This document shows positions 5,027-26,624 of a stretch of DNA of 64,000 nt, in pieces. Below the pieces are notes generated by a model, which was not told the DNA's origin, made no database searches, and saw only the letters and a program-made list of their open reading frames with translations. The DNA is from Candidatus Omnitrophica bacterium UBA6215 (GTDB lineage Bacteria > Omnitrophota > Gorgyraeia > Pluralincolimonadales > Pluralincolimonadaceae). Numbering within the stretch: the first letter of the stretch is position 1; the number at the start of each line of letters is the position of its first letter. Where the stretch lies: contig DISH01000007.1 of assembly GCA_002421665.1 (NCBI GenBank), forward strand, positions 81,278 to 145,277, given 5' to 3'. Made by a program: the position numbers and the translations under genes.

Positions 5027-5030
5027 ATTA

Positions 5031-5095
5031 TACTGCCCTGGATGTCCTGGTAGTAGTATACAACAGGAGAAGCCTTGCGGGAAAGGATTTCATCG
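5031..5095 (-). repeat. Short RHS-core boundary fragment (copy of the array's duplication boundary sequence)
   Basis: ctgccctggatgtcctggtagtagtatacaacaggagaagccttgcgggaaaggatttcatcgagg is near-identical to the upstream boundary of every orphan cassette and to 18900-18980 in the main rhs gene. Confidence 0.7.
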
Positions 5096-5518
5096 AGGGT
5101 TATTCGTATTTGTTCGCGTTCCCAAAAGACGTTTAACGAAAGTTTTGTTTAGTGACTTTGAGTATTTACCTAAAACAGGGTCATGAACTTCGAATATTAT
5201 GCTGTCATCCTTTATGTTTTCAATTCTCATTCCCCATTTTAATGTAAAGCGCCTATCCAAGTCCTCTTTATTCCAACGCATAGATAATTTCCTTTTATCA
5301 TGCCACGATACAAATTCGCCCCAATCACTCGGAAGCGTTCCTCCGTGCTCAGCTGAATACATTCTTATATCTTTAAAAAGAATGAGCGTTGTGTCAAAAT
5401 CCGTATAAACAACAAATTTCTTCATCCCGTAGTATGCTACGATCGCCGCTACGATAATAACCGATACAAGTGTAAATATTAAAATTTTATTACGAAATAT
5501 CACCATCCACCTCCACAT
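5090..5518 (-). CDS. Putative immunity protein for Rhs-CT cassette 5500-6597 (N-terminal TM anchor)
   Basis: Sits immediately downstream of, and overlapping, the toxin tip. A+T-rich with a single N-terminal TM helix. Confidence 0.5.
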   Translation of the reverse strand: MWRWMVIFRNKILIFTLVSVIIVAAIVAYYGMKKFVVYTDFDTTLILFKDIRMYSAEHGGTLPSDWGEFVSWHDKRKLSMRWNKEDLDRRFTLKWGMRIENIKDDSIIFEVHDPVLGKYSKSLNKTFVKRLLGTRTNTNNPR

Positions 5519-6597
5519 TTATCTTTCTTTTTCTTCAATGCTTCTTCAACATTTTCTTTTAATGCGTTAGGAGTGTTTATAAATTCCCAATCCAAGCCCA
5601 ATCCACTTGCTTCAATAATTTCCGACGCTGGACCTGTGCAGTTATTAAAACCCGGGTTATATGTTCCCGGGTTCTCCACAAATTCGTCACCTTTTTCTTT
5701 AGCAGCCTCGTCCTGCTTTTGCGTTGTGGGAATCCTTATACTATCCTCATCCGGGTTTGAATCAAATTTTTCCATTTCTCCTGGAGAATTAATTGTTGCC
5801 AAGGGATCATCGTATCCTCCATTCACGGGGTGATAGCTGTATTCGCTATAACCTGTGCTGCTTTCCGAGTCGGGTACAACCACAGACGCATGACCACCGT
5901 CAAAATAGTTATAGTAAATATCCATCCCCCACGGATCCACCCAGTTGACGGGGTTGTTTTGGCAATAGGAGTAGATATTAGGCCCTGGTAGCTGGCCTAA
6001 GGGGTCGGGCTGGAGGAAACGGCCTGTTTGGGGGTTGTAGTCCCTGTAGCGGTAGTAATAGAGGCCTGTTAGCTCTTCCTTGGGGCGGCCCGTGAAGCCG
6101 TAGGGCTGGTCTATTAGCTTATCAAGGAGCAGGAACTGCTTTGAGCGGCTCGATACATGACGCTCTCCGAAGGCGGTGTATTCGTAGGCCTGGATGGGCT
6201 TTGAGTCGCTTCCTGTAAGGCCTCTTATACTGCCCTGGATGTCCTGGTAGTAGTATACAACAGGAGAGGCCTTGCGGGAAAGGATTTCATCGAGGCGGGA
6301 ACCCAAAAGATACGATACCTTGCGCTTGCCTATGAAGCCGGTGGAGGATTCCCTTATTACGGAGAAGGAGTCGTAGGTGTATTTGACGTTGTTGCGGGCT
6401 ATCCTTCTTCCGAACGGGTCGTATTTGTAGGTTATATCCGAGAGACCAACGCGGGCGCCTGTTATCATGTTGCGACAGTTATAGGCGTATTCGGCGCGAT
6501 CGTCCTTTATGAGGTTGCCGAAGTCGTCGTACTTATATTCGGCTCCCCCGCACCAGGCGAAGTATATCTCCTTTCCCGATTGTCCGCCCCATGGCAC
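5500..6597 (-). CDS. Orphan Rhs C-terminal cassette: ~200 aa of RHS repeat-associated core ending in DPLGQ...DPWGM, plus ~150-aa variable toxin domain; 5' end fused to an esterase fragment
   Basis: Contains YRYRDYNPQTGRFLQPDPLGQLPGPNIYSYCQNNPVNWVDPWGM. The core part (5923-6545) is nearly identical at DNA level to 18605-19240 of the main rhs gene. The ORF's first residues derive from the esterase-paralog junction. Confidence 0.7.
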   Translation of the reverse strand: MPWGGQSGKEIYFAWCGGAEYKYDDFGNLIKDDRAEYAYNCRNMITGARVGLSDITYKYDPFGRRIARNNVKYTYDSFSVIRESSTGFIGKRKVSYLLGSRLDEILSRKASPVVYYYQDIQGSIRGLTGSDSKPIQAYEYTAFGERHVSSRSKQFLLLDKLIDQPYGFTGRPKEELTGLYYYRYRDYNPQTGRFLQPDPLGQLPGPNIYSYCQNNPVNWVDPWGMDIYYNYFDGGHASVVVPDSESSTGYSEYSYHPVNGGYDDPLATINSPGEMEKFDSNPDEDSIRIPTTQKQDEAAKEKGDEFVENPGTYNPGFNNCTGPASEIIEASGLGLDWEFINTPNALKENVEEALKKKKDKCGGGW

Positions 6598-6776
6598 CCC
6601 ACGATCAAAGGATACTTCTTTTTTGCGGGATCGTAGTTACCCGGGACATATACAAGCACCGTGACGCCGTCTATCTTCTCCTCGATAAGTTCGCCCTTCG
6701 GCGCGCAAAAAGCCGGAGGGATAAACAGCAACGACAGCGCGGCAACCACGAACACGGAACAGTAGTGTTTATTCAT
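6550..6776 (-). pseudogene. Truncated 5' fragment of an esterase paralog (signal peptide + ~75 aa) interrupted by an Rhs cassette
   Basis: MNKHYCSVFVVAALSLLFIPPAFCAPKGELIEEKIDGVTVLVYVPGNYDPAKKKYPLIVGCHGA parallels the N-terminus of the intact esterase at 4316-5026. The frame is lost at ~6550, where RHS-core sequence begins. Confidence 0.5.
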
Positions 6777-6783
6777 AACGGCT

Positions 6784-7944
6784 TTACAAGTTGACACTTT
6801 CGGTATTTCTATAACTAAAAACATCGGCTGTTTGACGGCGTTGATCCTGGATTCCTCCATATATGAGCGCCGGTTTAGCCCCATTCTTTTTATTCAGATT
6901 CCGGTAATATCGCAATCCCTTGAAATAATCCTCGTTTATCGTGCTCCCAAGTTTTATCTCAACCGGCCTAACGGATACGCCGTTCTCAAGAATAATATCA
7001 ACTTCGTTTCCGACATTGTCCCGGAAATAGTGTATATTGCTGTTTTTGCCGCGGTTCATTCGAGCTTTAAGAAGCTCCGCAACAACAAAATTTTCAAATA
7101 ACGCGCCTTTAAGGGGGTGATTCGCGATATGCCTGATATTTTGTATATCCAAAAGATACGCCGCCAATCCGCAATCGGTAAAGTACAGTTTTGGCGACTT
7201 GATGAGCCGTTTCCCGAAATTAGCATGATGTGGGCGCACAAAAAATATGATATAGCTTGCCTCAAGAACGCTTAGCCAACTCTTCGCGGTATTATGGCTA
7301 ATCCCGCAATCGTTGGCAAGGCTCGACATATTCATTATTTGCGCCACCCTGCCGGCGCACAGCTTTATGAATATTTCAAACTTCGTGAGGTCCGTCACAT
7401 TGATGAGCGAACGGATATCTCTCTCAATATATGTACTTACATAAAAAGATAGGGCTTCTGTCGGATTAAGCTTTTTATCATGAATACGCGGATAAAAACC
7501 GTTAAAAAGAACTTTATCTATTTGGATGGCCTTGTTTGAATATAATTCAGCATATGAGAACGGCAGGAGAACCGCCAATGCAGTCCTCCCGGCAAGGCTT
7601 TGGCTTACCGTATCCAAAAGATGGAAATTTTGGCTTCCGGTCAAAATAAAAAGCCCGGGCTTACCCTCCGAATCCGCAATCTCCTGTATATACGATACGA
7701 GCTCCGGAACTCTTTGGATCTCATCAATTACAGCGCCGCCCTTTAAGGTTCCGGAAAGAAAAGACCTTGGATCGTTCCTTGCGAAGTTGCGCGTATCGGT
7801 ATTCTCGAGGGAATAATATTTCAGCTTCGGGAATAACGCCTTGCACAAGGTGGTCTTCCCTGATTGACGCGGCCCTGTGATGGTGATGACCGGATACCGG
7901 CGCGCGTAATGTAATATTTTTTCTGCAATGGCCCGTTTTATCAT
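6784..7944 (-). CDS. AAA-superfamily ATPase (AAA_14 + DUF4143 type)
   Basis: Walker A motif ITGPRQSGKTTL and the typical DUF4143 architecture. Embedded between RHS fragments. Confidence 0.7.
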   Translation of the reverse strand: MIKRAIAEKILHYARRYPVITITGPRQSGKTTLCKALFPKLKYYSLENTDTRNFARNDPRSFLSGTLKGGAVIDEIQRVPELVSYIQEIADSEGKPGLFILTGSQNFHLLDTVSQSLAGRTALAVLLPFSYAELYSNKAIQIDKVLFNGFYPRIHDKKLNPTEALSFYVSTYIERDIRSLINVTDLTKFEIFIKLCAGRVAQIMNMSSLANDCGISHNTAKSWLSVLEASYIIFFVRPHHANFGKRLIKSPKLYFTDCGLAAYLLDIQNIRHIANHPLKGALFENFVVAELLKARMNRGKNSNIHYFRDNVGNEVDIILENGVSVRPVEIKLGSTINEDYFKGLRYYRNLNKKNGAKPALIYGGIQDQRRQTADVFSYRNTESVNL

Positions 7945-8021
7945 AGATTAAGTATACTTGCTGATTTACATTTTGTCAATCTAATTATCAATCTGTAAAA
8001 TGTATTACCAAACCTGCGGGA

Positions 8022-8158
8022 AAGGATTTCATCGAGGCGGGAACCCAAAAGATACGATACCTTGCGCTTGCCTATGAAGCCGGTGGAGGATTCCCTTATT
8101 ACGGAGAAGGAGTCGTAGGTGTATTTGACGTTGTTGCGGGCTATCCTTCTTCCGAATA
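8022..8158 (-). repeat. 137-nt RHS-core fragment identical to 6280-6415
   Basis: Direct comparison of the two stretches. Its 3' end supplies the last codons of the TPR gene. Confidence 0.7.
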
Positions 8159-9121
8159 TTTTTCCAAATCTTTAATTAATTTTGAATCAACTTTTGTTCC
8201 AAGCTCTTCCGCTTTATGAATATCCATCAAGGTTTTTTCATAGTTCTTAATTTGAAAATATGCGGATGCGCGGTTGGCATATACAGAGCCATACTTAGAA
8301 TTGAAGTTAATGGAATTGGTAAAATCAGAGATAGCTTGATTATAATCTCCTGTACGAGCATAGGCCAAGCCACGATTATTATAGGCAAGATAAAAATCGG
8401 GTTTTAATTCAATGGCTTTATTATAATCCAAAATTGCTCTAATAAAATCATTCCTATAATAATAAACAATACCGCGGTTATCATATGCTTCAGCGCATAG
8501 CGGATCAAGTTCAATTGTCTTTGTGTAGTCTCGCAATGCAAAATCGTAATCTTGTTTGAAATAATAAACGAGACCGCGGTTATAGTAGGCTTTGGCGTAT
8601 TTAGGATCGACTTCTATAGCTTTAGTAAAGTCTAAAATAGCTTTATCAAATTCATGCTTATCATAATAAATAAACCCGCGGTTATAGTAGGCTTTGGCGT
8701 ATTTAGGATCGACCTCTATAGCTTTAGTAAAGTCTAAAATAGCCTGATCATAATTATGCTTTATGTTATATGCAATGCCTCGATTATTATACGCATCGGC
8801 ACATTTTGGATTAATCTCAATAGCTATTGTAAAATCAGATATCGCCTGATTTAAATCTCCGATTTTGCGATAAGAAATTCCGCGGTTATTATATGCACCG
8901 TAATATTTAGGATCTATATCGATAGCTCTATTATAATCTAAAATGGCATTTTCAAAATCGCCTTTTCTGCGAAATGCGCCGCCTCGGTTATAAAATATCT
9001 TGGGGTTGGCAGGACTATCCTTTATCGCTTCTGTAAAATAATTTATAGCCTGATCATAATTTTTCTGATCAAGATATTCAAGGCCTTTTTCATAATTATT
9101 TTGGAATTTGCTATTAATCAT
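8141..9121 (-). CDS. TPR-repeat protein (at the immunity position of cassette 9136-9950)
   Basis: Nine or more 34-aa TPR units (AYYNRG...DYNKAIEL). Confidence 0.7.
   Translation of the reverse strand: MINSKFQNNYEKGLEYLDQKNYDQAINYFTEAIKDSPANPKIFYNRGGAFRRKGDFENAILDYNRAIDIDPKYYGAYNNRGISYRKIGDLNQAISDFTIAIEINPKCADAYNNRGIAYNIKHNYDQAILDFTKAIEVDPKYAKAYYNRGFIYYDKHEFDKAILDFTKAIEVDPKYAKAYYNRGLVYYFKQDYDFALRDYTKTIELDPLCAEAYDNRGIVYYYRNDFIRAILDYNKAIELKPDFYLAYNNRGLAYARTGDYNQAISDFTNSINFNSKYGSVYANRASAYFQIKNYEKTLMDIHKAEELGTKVDSKLIKDLEKYSEEG
8575..8750 (-). repeat. Intragenic tandem duplication (~100-nt period) inside the TPR gene
   Basis: gcggttatagtaggctttggcgtatttaggatcgac(t/c)tctatagctttagtaaagtctaaaatagc occurs twice, encoding duplicated KAIEVDPKYAKAYYNRG units. 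Confidence 0.5.
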
Positions 9122-9135
9122 ATTGCATTCTCCTT

Positions 9136-9950
9136 TTAATACGCATAAATTGGGATTCCCCCGCCAAATATCGGAGAGCCTCCGCCGCCAGGAAATGAGG
9201 AATTATTTGATTTTGGAAACGAATTTCCTATTTCTTCTAAAACACTATTTATTGCATTCACAACTGTCCCCCACACATTACTACTATAATCCGGCCTATC
9301 CTCTGCTGTAGGAGCTTCATCTTGTCCAAAAACTCCGTTTGGATACGGGCTACCGGGTGCCGGGATTGGAGAAGGAGGAAGCGGGTTCTGGTCCGGAGAA
9401 ACAGGTTTCGGACTTTCCTTTTGCTGATTTTTACTATTTTGTTTTGCAATATTCGCATCTTGCTGGGGATATTGAGAAGCTTCATATATACCAGAGGTCT
9501 CCGATTCTCCATTTACAATACCTTCAATAGCATCTATCATCTGCTGTATAGAATTTTCGCCTTCTTCCCTGCACATCCCCCACGGATCCACCCAGTTGAC
9601 GGGGTTGTTTTGGCAGTAGGAGTAGATGTTGGGGCCTGGTAGCTGGCCTAAGGGGTCGGGCTGCAGGAAACGGCCTGTTTCGGGGTTGTAGTCCCTGTAG
9701 CGGTAGTAATAGAGGCCTGTTAGCTCTTCCTTGGGGCGGCCCGTGAAGCCGTAGGGCTGGTCTATTAGCTTATCAAGGAGCAGGAACTGCTTTGAGCGGC
9801 TCGATACATGACGCTCTCCGAAGGCGGTGTATTCGTAGGCCTGGATGGGCTTTGAGTCGCTTCCTGTAAGGCCTCTTATACTGCCCTGGATGTCCTGGTA
9901 GTAGTATACAACAGGAGAGGCCTTGCGGGAAAGGATTTCATCGAGGCGGG
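9136..9950 (-). CDS. Orphan Rhs-CT cassette: 378-nt duplicated core (…DPLGQ…DPWGM) + ~146-aa Gln/Pro/Gly-rich toxin domain
   Basis: The core is near-identical to the main rhs gene and there is no start codon upstream of DPWGM. The ORF track shows only the part from the internal Met (9136-9591). Confidence 0.7.
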
Positions 9951-9962
9951 GGCCTAAAATGG

Positions 9963-11081
9963 TTAATTATTCGTTTCTTTCTCAAGTCTTTCAAGTTCTT
10001 TCCCGTAAACATCCTTAAATACACCCTTATAATTATCTTCGCTGATTTTTGAATATAACAACTTATACTTATCGATAGAATACCTATTTATTAAGTAATC
10101 ATAAAACAACAACAACTCCGCTTTTGCAACAGGATTATCCATATATAATGCCAAATTACTAAATATGTGCGATATTCCAATATGTTTGCCGGATCTTGCA
10201 ACGCAATCTTTTGCGTCTATAAGAGTTTTATTGTATTTCCACGTCATTTTAGATTCAATATAATCCGTAAATGTTTCGTTTAACAAAATTGGCGGATTTC
10301 CAATCTTTGAGGTTAAAATATGAGCAAGCTCGTGGGGATTATAGGAGAAATATGTTACTATCTTGTTTTTATCAGGATAAGCAACTCCAGCTGGCAACTC
10401 ATCATTAACTGAATATTTCGTAAACATGCAAAATTCTATTGCGGAAGTCACAATATAATAATCCACTTTACTATTAATAGTTATATTCAAATATTTACTT
10501 CCATATTCGAATTCTTTTTCAAGGATTTCAAATATCTTTTTATCATTTCCAAGAAATTTATATCTGGCTATTTTATCCTTATTTTGCGCGCCTTCAGATA
10601 CATCTGCAAATCTTTCTTTTTCATAATAAAATACTATTCTTCTTCCTTCGTAAGATTCCCACATTTTTGAATTTTTTATAACATACTCATCGTCAGTTAT
10701 AAGATATTTTCCATTATCATTAATGAACGGAATGGACATGATATATTCTTTCCCGCTGGGACGCAAACTTGCCTTAACTTGCAGTACAAAATAATCTCCT
10801 CTATTGCTTTCGCTTATAACAGTGAAATTTGAGGTTCTATACATAACGCTAATATCGTCAAACGCATTCCCTAAATACAACTTATAAATCCTGGATGATG
10901 GTAATATGCATTTGGAGACAATATCGCGATCTTTATTCTCCATGGCATGTACATAAGTTAGCCATGTTTCCGATGGAGTACCCAATTCAATCGCTCTATC
11001 ATGTCTACTCTGATGCTCAAACGCATTCAACACAATATAAATAGCGGCGAATATCAATAATACTGATAATATTTTTTTCAT
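9963..11081 (-). CDS. Secreted hypothetical protein with HExxH motif (HELAH), possible zinc-metallopeptidase-like; at the immunity position of cassette 11078-11572
   Basis: N-terminal signal/TM. An HELAH motif with a downstream Glu (LLNETF), A+T-rich. Its stop overlaps the upstream cassette start. Confidence 0.5.
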   Translation of the reverse strand: MKKILSVLLIFAAIYIVLNAFEHQSRHDRAIELGTPSETWLTYVHAMENKDRDIVSKCILPSSRIYKLYLGNAFDDISVMYRTSNFTVISESNRGDYFVLQVKASLRPSGKEYIMSIPFINDNGKYLITDDEYVIKNSKMWESYEGRRIVFYYEKERFADVSEGAQNKDKIARYKFLGNDKKIFEILEKEFEYGSKYLNITINSKVDYYIVTSAIEFCMFTKYSVNDELPAGVAYPDKNKIVTYFSYNPHELAHILTSKIGNPPILLNETFTDYIESKMTWKYNKTLIDAKDCVARSGKHIGISHIFSNLALYMDNPVAKAELLLFYDYLINRYSIDKYKLLYSKISEDNYKGVFKDVYGKELERLEKETNN

Positions 11082-11572
11082 TGCGATTTTACTCTATTGT
11101 TTTTTGTATCGTTCGTTTTCTCCCCATATGGAGTCTTATCATCATAGTTCCTTATTCCATCATTATCTGCATCATCATCGTATGGATTCACAATACCATC
11201 TCCATCCGTGTCAATAGGAACGGGTTCATTCGTCCAAGGATTTAAACCCCCGCTGTTATACTTTCTCCATATCTCATCAATGCCTCCTTCTCCTTCAATC
11301 CATTCTGGGTCATAGTTATTTTCTATATAGTTTTTTACATTCTTCTCGTATTGATTATCTGCCGGTCCTTGGCTTCCAACCTGCTGGTTTTGAAATGCTT
11401 CATACATGTCATTTAAACCAAATAACCCCCACGGATCCACCCAGTTGACGGGGTTGTTTTGGCAATAGGAGTAGATATTGGGCCCCGGTAGCTGGCCCAA
11501 GGGGTCTGGCTGGAGGAAGCGGCCTGTTTGGGGGTTGTAGTCCCTGTAGCGGTAGTAATAGAGGCCTGTCAT
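11078..11572 (-). CDS. Orphan Rhs-CT cassette with short core (LTGLYYYRYRDY…DPWGL) + Asp-rich CT (DTDGDGIVNPYDDDADNDG, Ca-binding-like)
   Basis: RHS core motif followed by DPWGL. The 5' end is fused directly to the stop of the previous immunity gene. Confidence 0.6.
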   Translation of the reverse strand: MTGLYYYRYRDYNPQTGRFLQPDPLGQLPGPNIYSYCQNNPVNWVDPWGLFGLNDMYEAFQNQQVGSQGPADNQYEKNVKNYIENNYDPEWIEGEGGIDEIWRKYNSGGLNPWTNEPVPIDTDGDGIVNPYDDDADNDGIRNYDDKTPYGEKTNDTKNNRVKSQ

Positions 11573-12222
11573 TCCTCATAAACGACTGGTGAATATTTTA
11601 GTGAGCTATCGATTAACGGCTTAGGCAAAGGTTTAAGACCTCTCTCATTACTTTTTCTGTTCCAACTAACATATAGATTTCGCGAAGCATACCAGTCATT
11701 AAATATTCTTAAAAACGGCTTGTTCTTATTTAGCAACTCGTTATCAACAAGGTTAGGGTCTTTTCCTTTTAAGGAAAAAACCGCACCTGGACTTGGAAAT
11801 CTAAGAAATTTTTTTATAGAGTAAAACAACACAAAATCGCCGGATTTTTCGGCCTTAAAACAACTGATCAATTGAAGTTTTTTGCCTAATTCTGCTATTT
11901 TATATTTTTCTTTCTCGTAAAATACGGGATAGCGCTCCTTTAACTTATTTGCAAAATACATGTTTTCGAGCATACTAAAATCTTCCCCGTTTATCTTAAC
12001 GTGGTTATGCGCAAATAGAACAATATCTTTATATTGAGGATATGAATTAAACAATCCAATGCACTCATTATATATAACAATCTTGTTACTGGTAAGCGTA
12101 TTCGATGAATAGACGTGCTTCATTACAGAATCAATAACCATTAATATTATGGGACTTGCTATAATAATTATGGTTAAAACTATTATTTTAACAACATCAC
12201 CTTTATGATTTTGAGTATCCAT
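11569..12222 (-). CDS. Putative immunity protein (N-terminal TM, 217 aa) for cassette 12227-12712
   Basis: Position, A+T-rich composition and N-terminal TM helix. Confidence 0.5.
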   Translation of the reverse strand: MDTQNHKGDVVKIIVLTIIIIASPIILMVIDSVMKHVYSSNTLTSNKIVIYNECIGLFNSYPQYKDIVLFAHNHVKINGEDFSMLENMYFANKLKERYPVFYEKEKYKIAELGKKLQLISCFKAEKSGDFVLFYSIKKFLRFPSPGAVFSLKGKDPNLVDNELLNKNKPFLRIFNDWYASRNLYVSWNRKSNERGLKPLPKPLIDSSLKYSPVVYEE

Positions 12223-12226
12223 TGTT

Positions 12227-12712
12227 CTATTCCTTTTTCTTTGCAGCGTTTTTCTGCTCCCTTAAATCCTCGAGAGCATCATTTGAACCATCATATATCA
12301 TGTCCCTGCTTATTGGATCATCAAAAAAATATTCCGGCCATTCACAATTAATTAATTCATTTACCGCATTGCCAATGGCATAATATTCTCCGCCAGCAAT
12401 AGTACCCAAATATCCAAATACACCATAATTATATACAGTTGCGTAGCTTGTAACATAATTCCCGAATTCCCCAGCACTTAGCTGCTGGCCATTAACTACA
12501 AAAGTTGAATCTGGTTCTGTTGAAGCAAAATCATATTCCGCATTGCCACTACCGCCAAAGCACTCGAAAGTTTTTGTAAAATAATCTATTATGCTGGTCC
12601 CTGAATCTCTTACTGCATTATTAATTATTTCGGTTGTTTCTTTCTCATTATAATCTTTTAACCCCCACGGAACAACCCAGTTGACGGGGTTGTTCCGGCA
12701 GTAGGAGTAGGA
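12227..12712 (-). CDS. Orphan Rhs-CT cassette lacking a start codon: 13 codons of core (SYSYCRNNPVNWVVPWGL) + ~150-aa CT
   Basis: Manual minus-strand translation is open from the TGA at ~12715 to the stop at 12227. DPxGL is replaced by VPWGL. The ORF track shows only the last 60 aa. Confidence 0.55.
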   Translation of the reverse strand, partial: SYSYCRNNPVNWVVPWGLKDYNEKETTEIINNAVRDSGTSIIDYFTKTFECFGGSGNAEYDFASTEPDSTFVVNGQQLSAGEFGNYVTSYATVYNYGVFGYLGTIAGGEYYAIGNAVNELINCEWPEYFFDDPISRDMIYDGSNDALEDLREQKNAAKKKE

Positions 12713-12760
12713 ACTGCTTCAAGCAGCTTGAGACCTGCCGCTATCCGAAGATGGTGTATC

Positions 12761-13399
12761 CTACTTCCTTCGACTTACTGCGATTGCAATAACAACTAGT
12801 ACAACGATTAGTATATCCGTTATGCCCCCTACAGCAGCAGGGTTCATCTTAACACTCAAATACTTATTTAAAACAAAAGTCAACCCTATAATTAACGATA
12901 TTACAACTACAGTAATAGAAATAAACAAGAATAATCCTTTTATCATCATCGCTTTGTTGAGTTTAACATATTTCTCTGATTTCCTGTTCTTTTTAGATAA
13001 AACCATAAGCGATATCAAAGCAAGAATTACCGCCTGTGATATAATTCCTATTTTATCGTTGATCAGCAGAAAATATTCTTTTATTCCCGTTTGTCTCATT
13101 GTATATATGACAATGCATAACAAGACCGTCACTATTATTGTTATAAATATTGTGGTGGCATATTTAAATTTCATGGATCTATATTTTTTTACCATAAATG
13201 ACATTATGAGAATTATGCTTATAGCAAGCAAGACAGGAGCAACGTATAAAGCGACTTTATTTACTATTCTTAATGAGTATCCGATAATCGTAAATATAAA
13301 TAAACAAATGAAAAATGTTCCTATGGCAATATGCCATTTCTCTTCTGTTGTCATATTACCATCTCCTATTTTTCGTTTAATGATATTTTTTAACGCCAT
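12761..13399 (-). CDS. Putative immunity protein, polytopic membrane protein (~6 TM)
   Basis: Multi-TM ORF immediately downstream of toxin tip 13401-13850. Start chosen at the Met that abuts the toxin stop. Confidence 0.55.
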   Translation of the reverse strand: MALKNIIKRKIGDGNMTTEEKWHIAIGTFFICLFIFTIIGYSLRIVNKVALYVAPVLLAISIILIMSFMVKKYRSMKFKYATTIFITIIVTVLLCIVIYTMRQTGIKEYFLLINDKIGIISQAVILALISLMVLSKKNRKSEKYVKLNKAMMIKGLFLFISITVVVISLIIGLTFVLNKYLSVKMNPAAVGGITDILIVVLVVIAIAVSRRK

Positions 13400-13400
13400 T

Positions 13401-14208: not shown

Positions 14209-14213
14209 GAGGA

Positions 14214-14591
14214 TTATTTTTTGTACTTTAATAACATTCTATCCACACATATTACAACAAGATAAGCAATGATAGGAATTATTACAAACACACATACAAC
14301 GCATGTTTCGCTTGATCTGAATATTGCAGAATATGCACTTTCAAGAATTAGTAATGCCGTTGAATATAACAATCCTAATAAGAATCTATTAATAGTATAT
14401 TTAAATCTAAATACTAACGATGCCATTGACAAAACATAATATGTAAGGACACAAAACAACGAATTAACCAGTAAATATATATGCAAATCATAGAGTTCCG
14501 GAACATAGCAATTTTTTAAATAAAACACATATGTTACGGTGAGGGATCCCGCAATAAGTCCTAATAGAGATGATATTAATTGTTTGATCAT
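14214..14591 (-). CDS. Putative immunity protein, 4-TM membrane protein (125 aa)
   Basis: Position and hydrophobicity. Confidence 0.55.
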   Translation of the reverse strand: MIKQLISSLLGLIAGSLTVTYVFYLKNCYVPELYDLHIYLLVNSLFCVLTYYVLSMASLVFRFKYTINRFLLGLLYSTALLILESAYSAIFRSSETCVVCVFVIIPIIAYLVVICVDRMLLKYKK

Positions 14592-14592
14592 T

Positions 14593-15062
14593 TTAATTAC
14601 ATTTTCCCTTATTTATCTCATTCTTTAATTTAACGTATTCTTCAATCATTTTCCATATAAACTCTTGACAGTCAAATTTACGCTCATCATCAAATACGGG
14701 ATGATGATACCTTTGCCCTGAATCATATTCGTTTTCCCACGCTTCACGGGCATTTATCTCTGCTTGTCTCATAAGATCATCATCATCTCCCTTCATGATA
14801 TAATCATCATCGTATTCAATACCCGAATAATCTGCCCCTATATTAGGTTCGCTTGGATTATCTTTATCATCTCCTAAATAACCTACATTCTCGTTGTTAT
14901 CATAGAACATTTGCCAATGTTGTCCCATGTTGGGATTTTCTTGATAAAGCCAGTTTTCGCCTAACCCGCTCAATATTTGACTCTCTAATCTTCTTGTTCT
15001 GATAACCCACATCCCCCACGGATCCACCCAGTTGACGGGGTTGTTTTGGCAGTAGGAGTAGA
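14593..15062 (-). CDS. Orphan Rhs-CT cassette with ~50-nt core remnant (IYSYCQNNPVNWVDPWGM) + ~138-aa acidic CT
   Basis: Core remnant 15010-15062, with an in-frame stop just upstream and no in-frame start before DPWGM. Confidence 0.55.
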
Positions 15063-15078
15063 TGCGGGATAGCCATAT

Positions 15079-15450
15079 TTATCTATCATTCTGAGCTTTA
15101 TAGGAATATACAAATCCTGATACAATTATAATACCAAATATGGCATTAAACGGAAATTTCCACCAAACAAGAACACTAAATATCACGAATGTGCAAGCCA
15201 TCGCATATTCATACATTCCGGCTTTGAGACATTTGATTTTTTTCTTTAACAAGGGTTTTATCCCTAAGCCTATTCCGACCCAACTAGCGTAGGCTATTAT
15301 GGCAGTAAATGATATTTTTGATCCGAATAAAGGCATGATTAGATAAACTGCGGTAAGAATAATTCCTAATGCCGCTATGCAGTTTGAAAGTAACGATGTT
15401 GCTTTGTATAATTCAGTTTTATTAATATTCTTAAAACCCCCTAATGACAT
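15079..15450 (-). CDS. Putative immunity protein, 4-TM membrane protein (123 aa)
   Basis: Position and hydrophobicity. Overlaps the stop of toxin tip 15441-15794. Confidence 0.55.
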   Translation of the reverse strand: MSLGGFKNINKTELYKATSLLSNCIAALGIILTAVYLIMPLFGSKISFTAIIAYASWVGIGLGIKPLLKKKIKCLKAGMYEYAMACTFVIFSVLVWWKFPFNAIFGIIIVSGFVYSYKAQNDR

Positions 15451-16092
15451 TCTGTACCCTCCTGTTGTAACCTGTCAATAGCGCTGCTTATCCTATTAAT
15501 GGCATCGGCTCCTGTAGATAAACTAACGGGACCTAGAGTTCCTGTCACTACCCACCCTTCCGGTCCGACAAGTAAACCTGCTCCTGCTGCTGCCCCCGTA
15601 GCAACAGACACTCCGGCTTCTATTCCTCCTACAACAGTATCCAGAACCGGTGCAACTATATTTGAATCAGGGAAACTCTCGGTAAAGGTTGGCAAATTGG
15701 GGAATGGATTTTCCCACATCCCCCACGGAGCCACCCAGTTGACGGGGTTGTTTTGGCAGTAGGAGTAGATATTAGGCCCTGGTAGCTGGCCCAAGGGGTC
15801 CGGCTGGAGGAAGCGGCCTGTTTGGGGGTTGTAGTCACGGTAGCGGTAGTAATAGAGGCCTGTCAGCTCTTCTTTGGGACGCCCCGTGAAGCCGTAGGGC
15901 TGGTCTATGAGCCTGTCAAGGAGCAGGAACTGCTTTGAGCGGCTCGATACATGCCGCTCTCCGAAGGCGGTGTATTCGTAGGCCTGGATGGGCTTTGAGT
16001 CGCTTCCTGTAAGGCCTCTTATACTGCCCTGGATGTCCTGGTAGTAGTATACAACAGGAGAAGCCCTGCGGGAAAGGATTTCATCGAGGCGG
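15441..16092 (-). CDS. Orphan Rhs-CT cassette: 376-nt core with DPxGL Asp->Ala (VAPWGM) + ~90-aa Gly-rich CT
   Basis: gctccg (Ala-Pro) replaces the gatccg (Asp-Pro) found in all other copies at ~15729-15731. The CT is GGIEAGVSVATGAAAGAGLLVGPEGWVVTG... Confidence 0.65.
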
Positions 16093-16101
16093 GGGCCTTG
16101 A

Positions 16102-16407: not shown

Positions 16408-16420
16408 CTGAGCGTTCCTT

Positions 16421-17553: not shown

Positions 17554-18186
17554 TTATATCTTATGTCTGCGTCTTAGCATAGATAATAAATCAACTATAA
17601 ATTTAAGCATAATTATTACAAACATAAATACCACAAACCAAGTCAGCATGCCATGAATATACCATAATCCAGATGTGACCCTAATTGGTTTGATCTCAAA
17701 TACTGTATCTCCGTCTGTTTTGTATCTATACTCATGCTGTCTGGCATGCTTTGAATCTTTCAATACCATAACAATAGAATACACTTTGCTATCCAAGGGC
17801 TTTATTACAAACTTCCCTGAAGTATATCCCTGATAATGCAATACATCTTCTAGATCCTTAATATACTTGGAGTAATTATCTGGTGGCAAGTACCTAAGAG
17901 TAGATAATTTCACATATCCGTCTTCTTTTTCGTTAACTATAATTTTCACTATGCCGGATTTGGCTTCCCTACATGATACTATTACTGCTCTTTCGGTTTT
18001 TCCTAATATCTCCGTATCTTTAAAGTATTTAGTTTTATACATATAGGATTGATCGGTGGGAAACATAAGGAACGATGAATTATCCTTTATATTTCTAGAG
18101 CTATCGGCGTTTCTTATAATGACGGCGCTAATAACAACGCTTATTAACACAGATATTACTATTAATGATTTGTAATTTCCTCTCAT
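17554..18186 (-). CDS. Putative immunity protein of the main Rhs toxin (N- and C-terminal TM segments)
   Basis: Starts 2 nt after the rhs stop; A+T-rich. Confidence 0.5.
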   Translation of the reverse strand: MRGNYKSLIVISVLISVVISAVIIRNADSSRNIKDNSSFLMFPTDQSYMYKTKYFKDTEILGKTERAVIVSCREAKSGIVKIIVNEKEDGYVKLSTLRYLPPDNYSKYIKDLEDVLHYQGYTSGKFVIKPLDSKVYSIVMVLKDSKHARQHEYRYKTDGDTVFEIKPIRVTSGLWYIHGMLTWFVVFMFVIIMLKFIVDLLSMLRRRHKI

Positions 18187-18187
18187 T

Positions 18188-21100
18188 CTACTCCCTTTTC
18201 GTATTGTCAGGAAAACAGTCCTTAAATTTCACTAAACCTATCCATAAATCGGTTGCCATTTCAATTGCGTTAATTTCCTCTTCAGAATAGTACTGATCAA
18301 GGTGATCGAAAATACCAACATTAGGATCAAAGATGGAATCAAATATGCTCCATCCTGGTTTTGCATAAAGATACGCTACGCTTGGAGGTACATTGGTTAA
18401 GTCTGCGAATCTTTCTAGCGTTAACGCCCAGTCTATATCGGTATCTCCATATATGGTCTCAGTGGTTAAATTAAATAGCTCGTAGCCGCTATCACCCCAC
18501 GTCGGATTATACTGTTCGGCAATCTCCTGATTCTCTAAACCCAAACCTATAATATGATTAATTATTTCCCTTTTTTCTTCTTCCGCCCAGATCCTTCTCT
18601 CTTCCATCCCCCACGGATCCACCCAGTTGACGGGGTTGTTTTGGCAGTAGGAGTAGATGTTAGGCCCCGGAAGCTGGCCTAAGGGGTCGGGCTGGAGGAA
18701 ACGGCCTGTTTCGGGGTTGTAGTCCCTGTAGCGGTAGTAATAGAGGCCTGTGAGGTCTTCTTTTGGTCTTCCCGTGAAGCCGTAGGGCTGGTCTATTAGC
18801 TTATCAAGGAGCAGGAACTGCTTTGAGCGGCTCGATACATGCCGCTCTCCGAAGGCGGTGTATTCGTAGGCCTGGATGGGCTTTGAATTGCCGTCAATAA
18901 GGCCTCTTATGCTGCCTTGGATGTCCTGGTAGTAGTATACAACAGGAGAAGCCTTGCGGGAAAGGATTTCATCGAGGCGGGGGCCCAATAGATACGATAC
19001 CTTGCGCTTGCCTATGAAGCCGGTGGAGGATTCGCGGATAACGGAGAAGTTATCATAAGTGTATTTGACGTTATTGCGGGCTATCCTTCTTCCGAAGGGG
19101 TCGTATTTGTAGGTTATATCCGAGAGGCCGACACGGGCGCCGGTCATCATATTGCGGCAGTTATAGGAGTATTCGGCGCGATCGTCCTTTATGAGGTTGC
19201 CGAGGGCGTCGTATTTATATTCCGCCGTGCCGCGCCTGATGAGCTGGTTGGCGGCGTTATACGTATAGGCGACCTCTTTGCCGCCGGCCGTCTCCTTTAC
19301 GCGGTTTCCGGCAGAGTCATAAGAATAAAACGCCGTTACGATGCCGGACTTCTCCGCGATAAGGCGGTATATTTTATCATATAGGTAATCCTTAACCCCG
19401 CCCGGGTTCTCTTCACTGACGATATTGCCGGCCGGATCGTAAGTATACTTGAAGAAATCCACGACCTTCTTGCCCGGGCCGGTTATTTCGATATTTTCAA
19501 GACGGCCGGACTTATCGTAAGAGTTGACCTGCGCTGTATCGTTAGGATAGAGCTTGGAGAGCAGTTTCCCGCCCGGGGTATAAGAATACCCGAACATCTC
19601 GTCGCCCTGGCGTATGCTAGACACGCGGTTGAGGGCGTCGTATTTATAAGCAACCTCATAACCTTCATCAAGGACGAGAGACGTCCTGTTGCCTTCGGCG
19701 TCGTAGGTATACGCGATCCTCTTGCGGGTATATGAATCCGCCTCCTCTATCAGCCGGTTCAGCGCGTCGTATTTGCGCGTGACTTCCGTTACCCCGTTCT
19801 TCGCCGACATGACGTTGCCGACGGCGTCGTAAGCATAGGTAACCGTATCATCGGGGTAGACGATCTTCGTGATCCTGCCGAATTCATCATATGAATAGGC
19901 CATCTTTCTGCCGTCCGCGAGGGCCTTCTCGGAAAGACGGCCCGCTGCATCATACGAAAACGCGGTCTTGCGTCCGAGCGGATCAGAGACGCTTTCTATC
20001 AAACCGAGTTTGTTGTAGGTGTAGCGCGTCGTGTTGCCGTTGCCATCGGTAACGGAAGCGAGCCTGCCGCCCTTGTCATAGGAATAGGCGGTCGTTATGC
20101 CTTCCGCGTCAAGCTTTTTCACTACCTTGCCGAGTTTATCATACTCGTAGCGGGTGGCGTTCCCGTTGGCGTCGATAATCCTGACGGCGCGCCCGGCAAG
20201 GTCGTATTCAACGCTCTTGTCCGTCCGGCCTTCCGTCTTGATCACGGTCAACCTGTCCAAGCCGTCGTATTCGAATTCTTTCTTTACCCCGTCAAAGTCG
20301 GCCTGCGCGACAATATTTCCGGAGAGGTCATAGCGCGCGGTCATCCTGCCGTTGGCCGGGTCTTTCACTGCGGTCAGGCGGCCGAGATGGTCGTATACGT
20401 AGCTCCATACATTATTATTGCGGTCGGCCTTCGATACTAAGTGCCCTGTTTCATCGTAACCGAGTTTAATGGTATTTCCGGACGGGTCTGTAACCTCCTC
20501 CATCCTGTTGAAGAAACCTTTCGTCCACTTGATTACGGTTACCCTTTTGAGCGGATCGGTTATTTTTGTCGGGTTCCCGAAAGCGTCGTACTCGTAAGAC
20601 ATCTCGTATGAACCGGACGCGGTTTCTTTAGCAACCTTGACGGGTTCATTATCCGCGTTGAAAGTATAAATTGTTACTAGCCCCGACGGCGAACACTCTT
20701 TGACAGCATTGCCTAAAGAGTCGTATTCGTATCTCGTAACGACGCCGTTGTTGTCTACGGAAAGCGCGTTGCCCAGGCCGTCCCTTTCGTAAGTTATTAC
20801 ACCGCCGTCCGGAATTACAGCGCGCGCGAGATACCCGTTAGCGTCATAAATAAATTCTGTTACGTTGCTTTCCGCATCGGTTATCTTCTCCGGCTTTCCG
20901 AGAGCGTTATAGGATATTTCCGTCGCATAGCCGAGCGGGTTCGTATATTTCAACAGGCGGCTGTTCGCATCATATGAATATTCTTCCTTGGCTCCGTCCG
21001 GGCGGGTCTTTCGTATGACATTGCCCCTGCCGTCATACTCAAATAACGTCACTCCGCCTCTTTGGTCAGTATATCTGGAAACGAGCTCTTTTTCGTTGTA

Positions 21101-23047
21101 TTCCTTCTGTTCGGCCCCGTTATCGAAGGCGGTTATCTTCACGAGGCATCTCTTATCATTGTAGTAGTAATTTTTGACGAGTTTGCCCAGTTCGTAGTAT
21201 TCGATATGGTTGTCTTTGTCGTTGTACTTGAACTCATAGACGGGTTTTTTATCGAGGAACTGCTTCAATACCCTGCGTGATTTGTCATATGCCGTGACAA
21301 GGGCCGTGCCGTCCGCGAATATCTTTTCCGACATATTGCCGCGCGAATCGTAAGAATACTTAACCAGCGAGCCGTCCGGCCGTTTGACATTCGTAACGGC
21401 GCCCGTCAAGGACGAATAACCGTAAGCGACCTCCCTGCCGGCATTGTCTTTCGCCTTGGTTATATGGCCGACATCGTTGTATTCGAATGCGATGGAGTTA
21501 CCGAGCTTATCCGTAACCTTCTCGAGAAAACCCGTTACCTTGCCGTATGAATAAACGAACCTGACGCCCTCGAGGTCCTCCATCCGGGCTATCCTGAAAT
21601 TGCCCTTCCTGCCGGAGGGTTCGAAACGGCACCTTACTCCGTCGGGATATTCCAGCGTGAAGTTTTCGCCGTCTTGTTTCAATAAAGCGAAATTCGACGG
21701 TTTCGCAGAAATATAAGCGTTCTTCGTGCCGTCGAATTCATAGACGAGCTCCTTCCAGTCGGAAGCCGTGACGACCGCCCTGCCGCGGGCTTCGACAGCC
21801 AAGTCCCACGAATAATCTGTGCTCCAGCCCTTGCCGAATCCCCTGTCCATTCGCCTCATGCTATTGTAATGGCGGGCAAGATTATGGCAGGGATAATTGC
21901 CGTTAAGATCGCGTTCGGTGGAGTAAAAATAACCGTCCGGCACGCATACCGGCTCGGCGACTTCATCGGTAGCTTCATTTTCAGCCGTTGTATCCTGCCC
22001 GGTCGAATCACCGGTTTCATCCGTCTGTTCCTCGGTCGTCTCGGTCTGCCCGTCAACCGTTTCTCCGTTGTTTTGCGGGCCGGCTCGCTCAGGCTCATTA
22101 ACATCAGTTATATTGTTTTCTACCTCATCAAATATACCAAGCTCTTGAAGATTTCCATATGTAAAACCCGCAGGTAAACCGTATTGTTCAACATATCCGT
22201 CAAGTGAAATACCGTAATAGTCCCCGACCTGCTCTTGCGCTCCGGAATAGCTTGGGCTAAAGTACGCCGTTCCGCTCTGGCTTTTCCCGCTTTCGCCGCT
22301 ATCCCCGCCACTGGAGCTTCCGGAAGATAACGAGACATTAACCGAGCTGCCCGATGAAGATGTTGAACCCGACGAAACTGTTGTCCCATCAATGCGTCTT
22401 TGCAAATTAACTATCCGGGCATCAAGCTCCTCTTCGGTCCATCCGTCCTGCAATTTTGCATGACGATATCTTAAATAGGCGGCCGCAGTTATGCCGTTAT
22501 TCATGAGTATTGTCATGAGCTCGGGATTACCGTTCATCAGTTCAGCAGTATCGGATAGCCCCACATTTATATATATATTAGCCGATATCTCATACTCCCG
22601 GACTTCATCGAGCACTTTATCCAGCAAAGACTGAGCCGTTCTCTTATAAGAATCATCCGTTTGCTGTTTTAAACTGAGTATCCAGTCATTAAGCGCCTGT
22701 TTTCCGCTTTCACCCTGGATCTGTGTATCGCGATAGTTCAAATATGTGCTTACCGATATGCCGTTGTTTTTTAAAATACTCGTTAAATCAGGGTTAGAGG
22801 TTTCAAAATTTTTTATCGTATCCGGGCTATAAGTAATCGTTCCTGAGGAAGACCCCTCATGTGTCTTTATATTGCCCAATATTTTGTCAAAAACCGCCGG
22901 AGCCTCTGTTGCTCCAGTTTTATTTCCCGAATTTTTCGCTTCTGTCGAGGAGAGAATAGCCGGCGAGGAATAAGCTAACGGAATAAGAATATATAAAGAA
23001 AAGATTGACATAATAATCGGGGTTACATAACGATTCACTCGTAACAT
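18188..23047 (-). CDS. rhs: Rhs/YD-repeat polymorphic toxin (1619 aa) with N-terminal Sec signal, tandem N-domains, YD repeats, RHS core (…DPLGQ…DPWGM) and ~138-aa C-terminal toxin domain
   Basis: Many YD repeats (YxYDxxGN/R…). A TIGR03696-like core, YRYRDYNPETGRFLQPDPLGQLPGPNIYSYCQNNPVNWVDPWGM, at ~18605-18740. Signal peptide MLRVNRYVTPIIMSIFSLYILIPLAYSSPA. Confidence 0.85.
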   Translation of the reverse strand: MLRVNRYVTPIIMSIFSLYILIPLAYSSPAILSSTEAKNSGNKTGATEAPAVFDKILGNIKTHEGSSSGTITYSPDTIKNFETSNPDLTSILKNNGISVSTYLNYRDTQIQGESGKQALNDWILSLKQQTDDSYKRTAQSLLDKVLDEVREYEISANIYINVGLSDTAELMNGNPELMTILMNNGITAAAYLRYRHAKLQDGWTEEELDARIVNLQRRIDGTTVSSGSTSSSGSSVNVSLSSGSSSGGDSGESGKSQSGTAYFSPSYSGAQEQVGDYYGISLDGYVEQYGLPAGFTYGNLQELGIFDEVENNITDVNEPERAGPQNNGETVDGQTETTEEQTDETGDSTGQDTTAENEATDEVAEPVCVPDGYFYSTERDLNGNYPCHNLARHYNSMRRMDRGFGKGWSTDYSWDLAVEARGRAVVTASDWKELVYEFDGTKNAYISAKPSNFALLKQDGENFTLEYPDGVRCRFEPSGRKGNFRIARMEDLEGVRFVYSYGKVTGFLEKVTDKLGNSIAFEYNDVGHITKAKDNAGREVAYGYSSLTGAVTNVKRPDGSLVKYSYDSRGNMSEKIFADGTALVTAYDKSRRVLKQFLDKKPVYEFKYNDKDNHIEYYELGKLVKNYYYNDKRCLVKITAFDNGAEQKEYNEKELVSRYTDQRGGVTLFEYDGRGNVIRKTRPDGAKEEYSYDANSRLLKYTNPLGYATEISYNALGKPEKITDAESNVTEFIYDANGYLARAVIPDGGVITYERDGLGNALSVDNNGVVTRYEYDSLGNAVKECSPSGLVTIYTFNADNEPVKVAKETASGSYEMSYEYDAFGNPTKITDPLKRVTVIKWTKGFFNRMEEVTDPSGNTIKLGYDETGHLVSKADRNNNVWSYVYDHLGRLTAVKDPANGRMTARYDLSGNIVAQADFDGVKKEFEYDGLDRLTVIKTEGRTDKSVEYDLAGRAVRIIDANGNATRYEYDKLGKVVKKLDAEGITTAYSYDKGGRLASVTDGNGNTTRYTYNKLGLIESVSDPLGRKTAFSYDAAGRLSEKALADGRKMAYSYDEFGRITKIVYPDDTVTYAYDAVGNVMSAKNGVTEVTRKYDALNRLIEEADSYTRKRIAYTYDAEGNRTSLVLDEGYEVAYKYDALNRVSSIRQGDEMFGYSYTPGGKLLSKLYPNDTAQVNSYDKSGRLENIEITGPGKKVVDFFKYTYDPAGNIVSEENPGGVKDYLYDKIYRLIAEKSGIVTAFYSYDSAGNRVKETAGGKEVAYTYNAANQLIRRGTAEYKYDALGNLIKDDRAEYSYNCRNMMTGARVGLSDITYKYDPFGRRIARNNVKYTYDNFSVIRESSTGFIGKRKVSYLLGPRLDEILSRKASPVVYYYQDIQGSIRGLIDGNSKPIQAYEYTAFGERHVSSRSKQFLLLDKLIDQPYGFTGRPKEDLTGLYYYRYRDYNPETGRFLQPDPLGQLPGPNIYSYCQNNPVNWVDPWGMEERRIWAEEEKREIINHIIGLGLENQEIAEQYNPTWGDSGYELFNLTTETIYGDTDIDWALTLERFADLTNVPPSVAYLYAKPGWSIFDSIFDPNVGIFDHLDQYYSEEEINAIEMATDLWIGLVKFKDCFPDNTKRE

Positions 23048-26617: not shown

Positions 26618-26624
26618 AATGATT

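Follow-up and report, generated by a model that had tools for sequence, protein, structure and literature searches.

Rhs loci of enterobacteria and plant pathogens, among them those of Salmonella Typhimurium LT2, Dickeya dadantii 3937, Xanthomonas and Pectobacterium, consist of a full-length gene and of same-strand modules in which a 3′ stretch of the core ending in DPxGL carries a different toxin tip and an immunity gene. The same tip can be active in one strain and orphan in another, and tips are switched by recombination (PMC3967940; bioRxiv 10.1101/2025.05.08.652813); recombination between a main rhs gene and an orphan has been selected experimentally in Salmonella (PMC3967940). Here we describe a locus that, judged by its sequence, is an Rhs polymorphic toxin with orphan modules, and so of a known kind, on contig DISH01000007.1 of Candidatus Omnitrophica bacterium UBA6215. 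The DNA is of metagenome origin, and the 64,000 nucleotides (nt) that were analysed are referred to as the window. The locus very probably encodes a Sec-exported Rhs (YD-shell) polymorphic toxin together with a store of alternative warheads. One full-length gene, ending in the tip CT0, is followed downstream on the same strand by seven orphan cassettes (o1 to o7), each composed of a 3′ core arm, a distinct tip (CT1 to CT7) and a coupled open reading frame (ORF), the partner ORFs being labelled imm.

Unlike the Rhs proteins of the enterobacterial and plant-pathogen loci, which are type VI secretion system (T6SS) cargo linked to PAAR, VgrG or chaperones, the protein described here has a putative Sec-type leader and no such context; its tips match no described toxin family in Pfam or NCBIfam, and it belongs to an uncultured, Omnitrophota-like bacterium. 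With seven orphans in a single array the locus is at the high end of published cases; the most that the survey of those loci found in one genome is eight. A median of one active toxin per three cassettes has been reported (PMC3482391), eight orphan modules are known from the genome of Xanthomonas hyacinthi (bioRxiv 10.1101/2025.05.08.652813), and long orphan arrays occur in bee-gut Snodgrassella (PMC8125069). The depth of the present array is therefore above the reported median and inside the known range, so that the repertoire called unusually deep in an initial annotation of the window is so in relative terms only.

The characterised tips of WapA proteins are nucleases that act in the cytoplasm. 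WapA of Bacillus subtilis and Streptococcus suis shares with the present protein RHS repeats, a C-terminal toxin that varies, an immunity gene downstream and an N-terminal signal peptide, which in the present protein is putative (PMC3482391 Table 1; PMC12704120), but it is a wall-associated protein of monoderms, whereas the organism studied here is probably diderm and the partners are mostly envelope proteins. The arrays of bee-gut Snodgrassella alvi and Gilliamella likewise combine one core domain with many tips and contain orphan immunity genes that have no toxin (PMC8125069). They are linked to a T6SS and come from cultured Proteobacteria, whereas the present array has next to no intergenic DNA and arms of unusual uniformity (377-384 nt, one shared junction). 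Cassettes of Neisseria MafB follow the same logic as the orphan arrays of CdiA-CT/CdiI. The latter resemble the present locus in having a constant delivery gene and tip-immunity cassettes with short homology for recombination (PMC4927057, PMC9086364), but CdiA and MafB are built on TpsA filaments or a MafB scaffold rather than on a YD shell, and there is no sequence relationship. The locus is new in its host lineage, in lacking a T6SS context, in its eight uncurated toxin families, in the bias of its partners towards the envelope and in cassette boundaries that are very compact and uniform. The classic architecture of Rhs tip switching is thereby extended to an uncultured Omnitrophota-like lineage without visible type VI context.

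The full-length rhs gene

All genes of the locus are on the minus strand of the window, and positions designated 'main' are window coordinates of the full-length rhs gene. This gene (23047..18188, as defined by ORF and translation) encodes a protein of 1619 amino acids (aa) that is composed of a leader-like segment (aa 1-28), a lineage-specific N-terminal region, DUF6531 (aa 365-436, Pfam), a YD/RHS shell, an Rhs_assc_core domain (aa ~1396-1481) and CT0 (aa 1482-1619; 18604..18191). The shell is recognised as RHS/YD repeats in 19 stretches (Pfam RHS_repeat, E 6.7e-105), and TEN_YD-shell matches are already recorded for the same Rhs protein. The core domain TIGR03696 is complete (model positions 1-76 of 76, E 2.7e-26, score 91.9 against a cut-off of 32.5 bits) and ends in ...NWVDPWGM. 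The core as a whole ends in ...DPLGQLPGPNIYSYCQNNPVNWVDPWGM, the PxxxxDPxG(L/M) motif of the core-tip boundary is present, and translation bears out the 138-aa tip directly after DPWGM that the initial annotation had described.

The N-terminus of the protein, MLRVNR-YVTPIIMSIFSLYILIPLAYS followed by SP, has a positive n-region, a 19-aa hydrophobic segment (aa 7-25) and an A-x-S site. It looks like a Sec leader by hydropathy and inspection, and to this extent the earlier label of 'Sec-signal' stands. Such a leader fits the Sec/type II secretion system class of RHS toxins, which has been described together with cassette recombination (PMC3482391, with Table 1). The ~330 aa between leader and DUF6531 have no family match, and a search with the N-terminal region returned a single distant homologue, a 35%-identical fragment, which leaves the delivery domain unexplained by family. 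No PAAR or related Pfam match is present in the Rhs protein at E <= 0.01, and no VgrG or other T6SS family was found among the ~30 window ORFs scanned with Pfam. A T6SS-delivered Rhs effector is ruled out on these grounds, and delivery is, from the gene content, not of the type VI kind. The protein was also considered as a TcC subunit of an ABC (Tc) toxin, a candidate rejected because neither it nor its neighbours contain TcB (SpvB, TcdB_mid, FG-GAP) or TcA domains. Since a TolC-like outer-membrane protein is encoded next door, the organism is probably diderm, and the toxin must then also cross the outer membrane.

By analogy with Rhs biology (PMC3482391, PMC3967940, PMC8125069), the YD shell would enclose the tip and the core domain would cleave at DPWGM. 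The released tip would then poison neighbours without the matching immunity protein, and the downstream ORFs would shield the producer and its kin.

Orphan cassettes and their partners

Copies of the core were located by BLASTN of the main gene against the window and by a repeat search, and the same repeat families were obtained from both. The copies are 76-100% identical to the main gene, with a best BLASTN E-value of about 1e-168, which rules out chance. These searches and translation confirm the full-length gene with seven displaced cassettes reported by the initial annotation, and the positions that it gave for repeated core segments of ~50-620 nt agree within a few bases with the arms of 49-623 nt found here. 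In stop-to-stop translation all seven core fragments are in frame with a C-terminal domain of their own of 91-145 aa, with no stop or frameshift, and every tip is tightly coupled to its partner, the two overlapping by up to 35 nt or lying at most 14 nt apart. TIGR03696 is whole in the arms of o1, o3, o6 and o7, whereas o5, o2 and o4 retain only the last 49 or 18 positions. The tips were also said to be A+T-rich, in agreement with 1-kb bins that are mostly 32-46% G+C between 5 and 19 kb, compared with about 51-53% for the Rhs core and flanks; the core-rich bin at 6-7 kb has 51%.

The putative immunity protein of CT0, imm0 (17554..18186; 210 aa), starts 1 nt past the CT0 stop and has two predicted transmembrane (TM) segments, one N- and one C-terminal. 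Cassette o1 (15079..16097) has a 381-nt arm (15717-16097; 92.4% identity, E 8e-160), the Gly-rich, hydrophobic CT1 (15441-15716; 91 aa) and imm1 (15079-15450; 123 aa, about four TM segments), which overlaps CT1 by 10 nt. The arm of o2 (14214..15064) is only 55 nt long (15010-15064) and 100% identical to the main gene; it leads into CT2 (14593-15009; 138 aa), followed by imm2 (14214-14591; 125 aa, 3-4 TM). In o3 (12761..14209) a 377-nt arm (13833-14209; 93.6%) precedes CT3 (13401-13832; 143 aa), the N-terminal half of which is Gly/Ser-rich and hydrophobic, and imm3 (12761-13435; 224 aa, 6 TM) overlaps the tip by 35 nt. Cassette o4 (11569..12759) is the most decayed: its core remnants (12659-12759, with the motif VPWGL) appear in BLASTN as two matches (12617-12710 and 12703-12759) at 76-82% identity with an internal deletion, and they are followed by CT4 (12227-12658; 143 aa) and imm4 (11569-12222; 217 aa, N-terminal TM).

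The arm of o5 (9963..11572) is 144 nt long (11426-11569; 94.4%), CT5 (11078-11422; 114 aa) contains thrombospondin-type Asp-rich repeats, and imm5 (9963-11081; 372 aa) has an N-terminal leader and a weak match to Peptidase_MA_2. Cassette o6 (8141..9957) combines a 384-nt arm (9574-9957; 93.8%, E 2e-168) with the Pro/Gly-rich CT6 (9136-9573; 145 aa) and a soluble TPR protein (8141-9121; 326 aa), the putative immunity protein. The longest arm, of 623 nt (5921-6543; 92.1%), belongs to o7 (5090..6543), in which CT7 (5500-5922; 140 aa, motifs GGHAS...NNC) is overlapped by 19 nt by imm7 (5090-5518; 142 aa, N-terminal TM or leader).

The partner ORFs of the cassettes are all intact, and seven of the eight have a predicted TM segment or leader, so that the targets are probably in the envelope; judged from the partners, the toxins most likely act on cell envelope, membrane or periplasm. 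The initial annotation's small, mostly membrane ORF after each tip fits five of the seven orphans, the exceptions being the 372-aa leader-bearing protein and the 326-aa TPR protein. Nothing significant was found by Pfam for the partner ORFs, and imm0 had no match.

The starts of some orphans bear on a further explanation, that they are expressed alone as small intracellular toxin-antitoxin-like pairs that stabilise the island. The ATG of o5 overlaps the imm4 stop codon (ATGA) to give a 164-aa ORF, GTG codons are present at MDPWGM in o2, o3 and o6, and an orphan on a related contig (L011, below) is an ATG-started 317-aa ORF. The orphan ORFs are nevertheless without export signal or shell, most of the immunity partners are envelope proteins, which fits exported rather than cytoplasmic toxins, and promoter-like sites in the region are no commoner than in shuffled sequence (51 versus 49 +/- 8); we regard such autonomous pairs as very improbable. 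Terminator consensus sites in the region are likewise not more frequent than expected by chance, and an Rfam scan of the window gave no match.

Tip families

All eight tips have homologues. An HMMER search of 1.84 billion representative proteins, with the tips concatenated as query, gave at least 150 matches at E <= 1e-3, which were re-mapped to single tips; the counts that follow are of the matches listed and include self matches. Homologues number at least 22 for CT0, at least 30 for CT1 (most of them behind DPxGL core ends), at least 23 for CT2 (three on Rhs proteins of 1366-1371 aa), at least 4 for CT3, at least 52 for CT4 (several on Rhs proteins of 820-1473 aa), at least 2 each for CT5 and CT6, and at least 18 for CT7, behind DPxGL ends. 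Among these matches nearly every tip homology begins directly after a core end of the ...N.P.N..DP.GL type, and several homologues, of 1312-4257 aa, are full-length and contain RHS or YD-shell domains. By these homologies the tips are genuine Rhs cargo. The longest protein, P0103 (4257 aa), has a CT0-family C-terminus on an SpvB/TcdB_mid/FG-GAP/RHS protein, that is, a fused TcB-TcC-like architecture, and the CT0 family is thus common to Sec-type Rhs proteins and ABC-toxin-like carriers.

Pfam has no match at E < 0.05 to any of the eight tips, and NCBIfam recognised the core domain alone. Profiles of the CT2, CT7 and CT0 families found nothing below E 0.02 among PDB sequences. The toxin domains, described in the initial annotation as unrecognisable by eye, are thus equally so to Pfam, NCBIfam and PDB sequences, and eight toxin families with their partners fall outside these resources. 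The family alignments do reveal conserved motifs: Y.PT...G.TD.DWALTL...Y..GK..W...E.NAI.MA...FP for CT0, NPFP.LP.F..FP.S..AP.ADI..GG.E.G...GPE.W for CT1, HWQ.FY.DG.N.GY.G...DD..M..AE...Y.HP..DCQ for CT2, FGNY.AGY for CT4 and GGHAS...TGY...P..GG...QD...PG.YN..NNC for CT7. The near-invariant His and Cys positions of CT2 and CT7 suggest that these tips are Cys/His hydrolases or transferases, with H31 and C114 of CT2 and H11 and C95 of CT7 as the candidate residues; an hhalign comparison of the two profiles found no homology past a local Y..NC/DC motif.

AlphaFold models of CT2 (predicted local distance difference test, pLDDT, 88.9; predicted template modelling score, pTM, 0.84) and CT0 (pLDDT 90.2, pTM 0.85) are confident, and Foldseek found no match with E < 1 to either model in the PDB. 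The weak matches of CT2 include the picornavirus 2A proteins 7zv1 and 7zu4 at an E-value of about 7.6, a lead rather than evidence. These belong to the H-box/NC proteins, relatives of the LRAT/PLAAT family, and would accord with the H...C motifs of CT2. CT1 and CT3 are hydrophobic and rich in glycine and look like peptides that insert into membranes, and each has a polytopic membrane protein as partner; in this they resemble pore-forming T6SS effectors such as Tse4 and Ssp6. The tips are candidates for new antibacterial activities, probably aimed at the envelope.

Evidence for tip exchange between strains

Two public metagenome contigs encode an identical Rhs protein and end within the array, and ten metagenome contigs have arms that are 82-96% identical to the window arms; related contigs are labelled L0xx below. 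On L010 a full-length core (92% nt identity) carries a different, 195-aa tip and is followed by the o6 module, 97.4% identical over its whole length, and then by a 492-nt arm with CT1-imm1 (CT1 93% identical in aa). The order on L017 is TPR gene, 492-nt arm, CT5, imm5, 384-nt arm and CT3; the CT5-imm5 pair is 97% identical (nt) to that of the window, and the next tip is CT3 rather than the CT6 of the window. L018 runs from imm7 through an arm, a new tip, homologues of two ORFs of 158 and 101 aa (see below) and a 79-nt core scrap to the esterase gene. Its flanks are 98-99% identical to the window, which gives L018 one more cassette at the distal end, between imm7 and the terminal scrap. L016 also retains imm7.

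CT0, the active tip of the window, is found on L013 behind a 464-nt arm, followed by imm0 and a 192-aa ORF. This arm begins 3 nt after another ORF's stop, and CT0 is therefore an orphan in L013. The exchange of active and orphan position is thus seen between strains, in CT0 and in the other tip of the L010 core. Homologues of imm0 follow CT0-type tips in L013 (52% aa) and L015 (44%). When L013 2393-3437 is aligned with window 17554-18604, CT0 is 96% identical (aa) and imm0 only 52%, a discordant divergence within one module that reflects either a recombination breakpoint between toxin and immunity gene or very fast evolution of the immunity gene. No similarity to imm0 was found in the ORF after P0049, a distant CT0-type Rhs protein. 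In P0008, a 1366-aa Rhs protein, the tip shares 52% identity with CT2, and the next ORF, of 128 aa, is weakly similar to imm2 (E 2e-4) and appears multi-TM by eye from the alignment, not by prediction.

In total, 13 unrelated tip families are present on one core lineage, made up of the window and its close relatives. CT-ORF pairs stay together in L010, L013, L015, L017 and L018, so that the linkage of cassettes to downstream ORFs on which the initial annotation depended is kept in relatives. That a tip is active in one strain and stored in another, and that tip-partner pairs travel as units, is what tip switching and cassette exchange would be expected to leave behind. Recombinational tip switching, likewise proposed in that annotation, is supported by the comparison with L010, L013, L017 and L018, which is evidence at population level for the shuffling of whole cassettes among co-existing strains. 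In the mechanism that we propose, and with which the strain comparison agrees, homologous recombination of any arm with the 3′ core of the main gene, or of one arm with another, would fuse a stored tip and its immunity gene to the delivery module. Such recombination would also delete, duplicate or reorder cassettes, and cassettes would pass between co-occurring strains.

Cassette junctions and recombination footprints

An identical upstream breakpoint had been claimed for the long arms, and this is nearly right: homology to the main gene starts at main 18988 in o6, 18985 in o1, 18981 in o3 and 18977 in a terminal scrap, a spread of 12 nt. The same junction is found behind other upstream genes in L010, L015 and L019, so that the junction at main 18973-18988 is common to at least six different upstream genes. 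Two further junction classes exist, one at main 19063-19069 (in L011, L013 and L016), the other at 19096. For the arm starts of the window (16097, 15064, 14209, 12759, 11569, 9957, 8156 and 5098), compared together with L005-L023, the distance from the stop of the previous ORF ranges from 37 nt before to 23 nt after it, with one at +57; most are 1-5 nt, whatever the arm length, and the array has almost no intergenic DNA. Recombination of arm with arm explains the spread of these junctions, not their origin.

The arms of o3, o6 and o7 are exactly identical over their 5′ 269 nt (13941-14209, 9682-9950 and 6031-6299), and their differences are confined to the last ~107 nt beside the tip. This gradient of identity resembles gene conversion. 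It is the pattern that crossovers within arms would give, the tip-proximal part moving with the tip and the remainder being homogenised.

Taken furthest, these features could describe a compact cassette system that works by homologous recombination, in which [arm + tip + immunity] units with fixed boundaries can be cut out, put back and traded among co-occurring Omnitrophota strains, integron-like without an integrase; its toxins would form no fewer than eight families, undescribed and envelope-directed, two of them having folds that the PDB lacks, and delivery would be Sec-dependent and not by T6SS, maybe via the neighbouring TolC-like/glycoside-hydrolase module. We think this full combination unlikely. 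An integron-type array proper was rejected, as no integrase was found among the scanned locus ORFs (small or fragmentary ORFs were not scanned) and the cassette boundaries are Rhs core sequence.

Toxin-less ORFs and a possible defensive role of the array

Three ORFs without a toxin lie between imm0 and o1 (16102-17465). They encode proteins of 192 aa (16887-17465; 3 TM), 158 aa (16421-16897; Cys-rich, zinc-ribbon-like) and 101 aa (16102-16407; 2 TM and a zinc ribbon). In L015 and L018, homologues of the 158- and 101-aa ORFs come after a tip of the family C(K/R)EED...FWSRWPDYVTDP, which the window lacks, and in L014 a homologue of the 192-aa ORF follows a CT4-family tip; no similarity was found between imm4 and the 192-aa ORF. 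Given these neighbours in relatives, the three are read as orphan immunity genes left after loss of the toxin from their cassettes. They were overlooked in the initial annotation, as were the identity of the o3, o6 and o7 arms over 269 nt and an insert at 6546-8014.

Orphan immunity genes of this sort would be expected if the array were mainly a defensive immunity island, in which tips are never redeployed, immunity genes are read through from the main gene and tip ORFs hitch-hike. The intact state of every partner ORF agrees with this, and so does L011, in which GT2 through most of rhs is missing and a 467-nt arm with its tip follows a spermine-synthase-like gene; because that gene is located just upstream of GT2 in L040, L011 is a deletion derivative, one that has lost the full-length gene and retains one orphan and immunity-type ORFs. 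Genomes of Gilliamella apicola with orphaned domains only have been read as defensive (PMC8125069). The seven tips are nonetheless intact and in frame with their arms, the long arms retain a complete Rhs_assc_core domain, and the same tip is active in one strain and orphan in another. A mainly defensive array is possible, if somewhat doubtful, and it and a store of warheads do not exclude each other.

Order of the cassettes and points against a store of warheads

The exact repeats raise the question whether the depth and order of the array are an artefact of assembly, with cassettes of co-existing strains threaded through repeated arms. The 269-nt identity of the o3, o6 and o7 arms and a 142-nt exact repeat around the insert would permit this; short-read assemblies recovered here break at the 269-nt repeats, public short-read contigs of the region end inside both repeats, and other cassette orders exist as strain variants in related samples. 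Those variant orders, however, come from contigs that are 2-10% diverged. Contigs with 100% identity cover main to o1, o2 and the o3 arm (33047 to 14070), the o3 arm through CT3..imm5 to the o6 arm (14081 to 9682), and CT6-TPR to the core scrap (9898 to 8016), their ends lying inside exact repeats; all are present in the single sample ERZ27315056 and also in JGI samples. L026, L032 and L033 are 100% identical to the o3 stretch, and L034 and L035 to the o6 region. The fixed ends allow one alternative order of two blocks, with the cassette count unchanged. A chimeric array is, in our view, rather improbable, and the locus illustrates why short-read metagenome assemblies systematically break such arrays.

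Several points weigh against an exported toxin with switchable tips. The order of the [CT3..imm5] and [CT6..esterase fragment] blocks and the placement of the ATPase insert come from the assembly, and the insert was identified through an exact protein match rather than by alignment to the window. The last 380 nt of the main gene differ by 6-8% from every long arm, at shared positions, which means that the main gene has not recently exchanged with the long arms in this strain; the variants private to the main core lie 63-312 nt from its DPWGM end. The toxin and immunity roles are putative and assigned from gene linkage, and the leader is judged from hydropathy and inspection. Foldseek against the PDB yields no function for CT0 or CT2, and the activities of the tips are therefore guesses from motifs.

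Core scraps, the ATPase insert and the esterase flank

A core-only scrap at 8015-8156, corresponding to main 18955-19096, overlaps the end of the TPR gene of o6 and is 100% identical to 6273-6414. The same junction continues in L010 and L017 as an intact 492-nt arm followed by a tip. Between the two copies of this 142-nt exact direct repeat lies the non-Rhs insert (6546..8014, minus strand), which consists of an AAA_14/DUF4143 ATPase gene (6784-7944, Pfam) and the 5′ part of an esterase paralogue (~6546-6884). This fragment joins the o7 arm out of frame, and at 6546-6700 it has a 70.5% nt match to the intact esterase gene (4786-4938). The ATPase block may be a single-crossover insertion or a strain-specific variant. 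Short-read assemblies hold it as a separate, repeat-bounded contig.

The terminal core scrap (5028-5098, minus strand; 71 nt, main 18907-18977) starts at the common junction at main 18977 and is truncated where the intact esterase gene (4316-5026), followed by tatC, has its start codon. The partial esterase copy at the o7 arm and the scrap that abuts the intact esterase gene indicate that the array has repeatedly recombined against this flank.

Genes upstream of rhs

Directly upstream of rhs, after a gap of 9 nt, three genes at 23057-29181 (minus strand) encode a GT2 glycosyltransferase of 532 aa, an HlyD-type membrane-fusion protein of 318 aa and a 1186-aa fusion of a TolC-like OEP domain, a 'putative glucoamylase' (PF10091) and TPR repeats. 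Several homologues of the fusion protein carry the NCBI name Candidatus Omnitrophota. Synteny in the order polyprenyl synthase, GT2, HlyD-like, OEP/glucoamylase(/TPR) and Rhs is found in related genomes, which are metagenome-assembled genomes labelled Planctomycetia, Omnitrophota or UBP3. We considered that Rhs and this module might be functionally linked, given their synteny within the clade, but do not claim such a link, as Rhs is absent next to a distant relative of the module.

The upstream trio looks like a tripartite system for polysaccharide synthesis and export whose outer-membrane channel carries a fused glycoside hydrolase. In the relatives L040 and L041 the TPR part is encoded by a gene of its own. 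The region at 22-29 kb of the window has a lower G+C content of 40-47%. Elsewhere in the window, at 48865-53358 (minus strand), a second PF10091 'glucoamylase' protein with CBM30 (756 aa) is encoded beside a GH116 beta-glucosidase-like protein (740 aa), and a glycogen debranching enzyme is encoded at 43762-45774, so that this genome region is rich in glucan-active enzymes.

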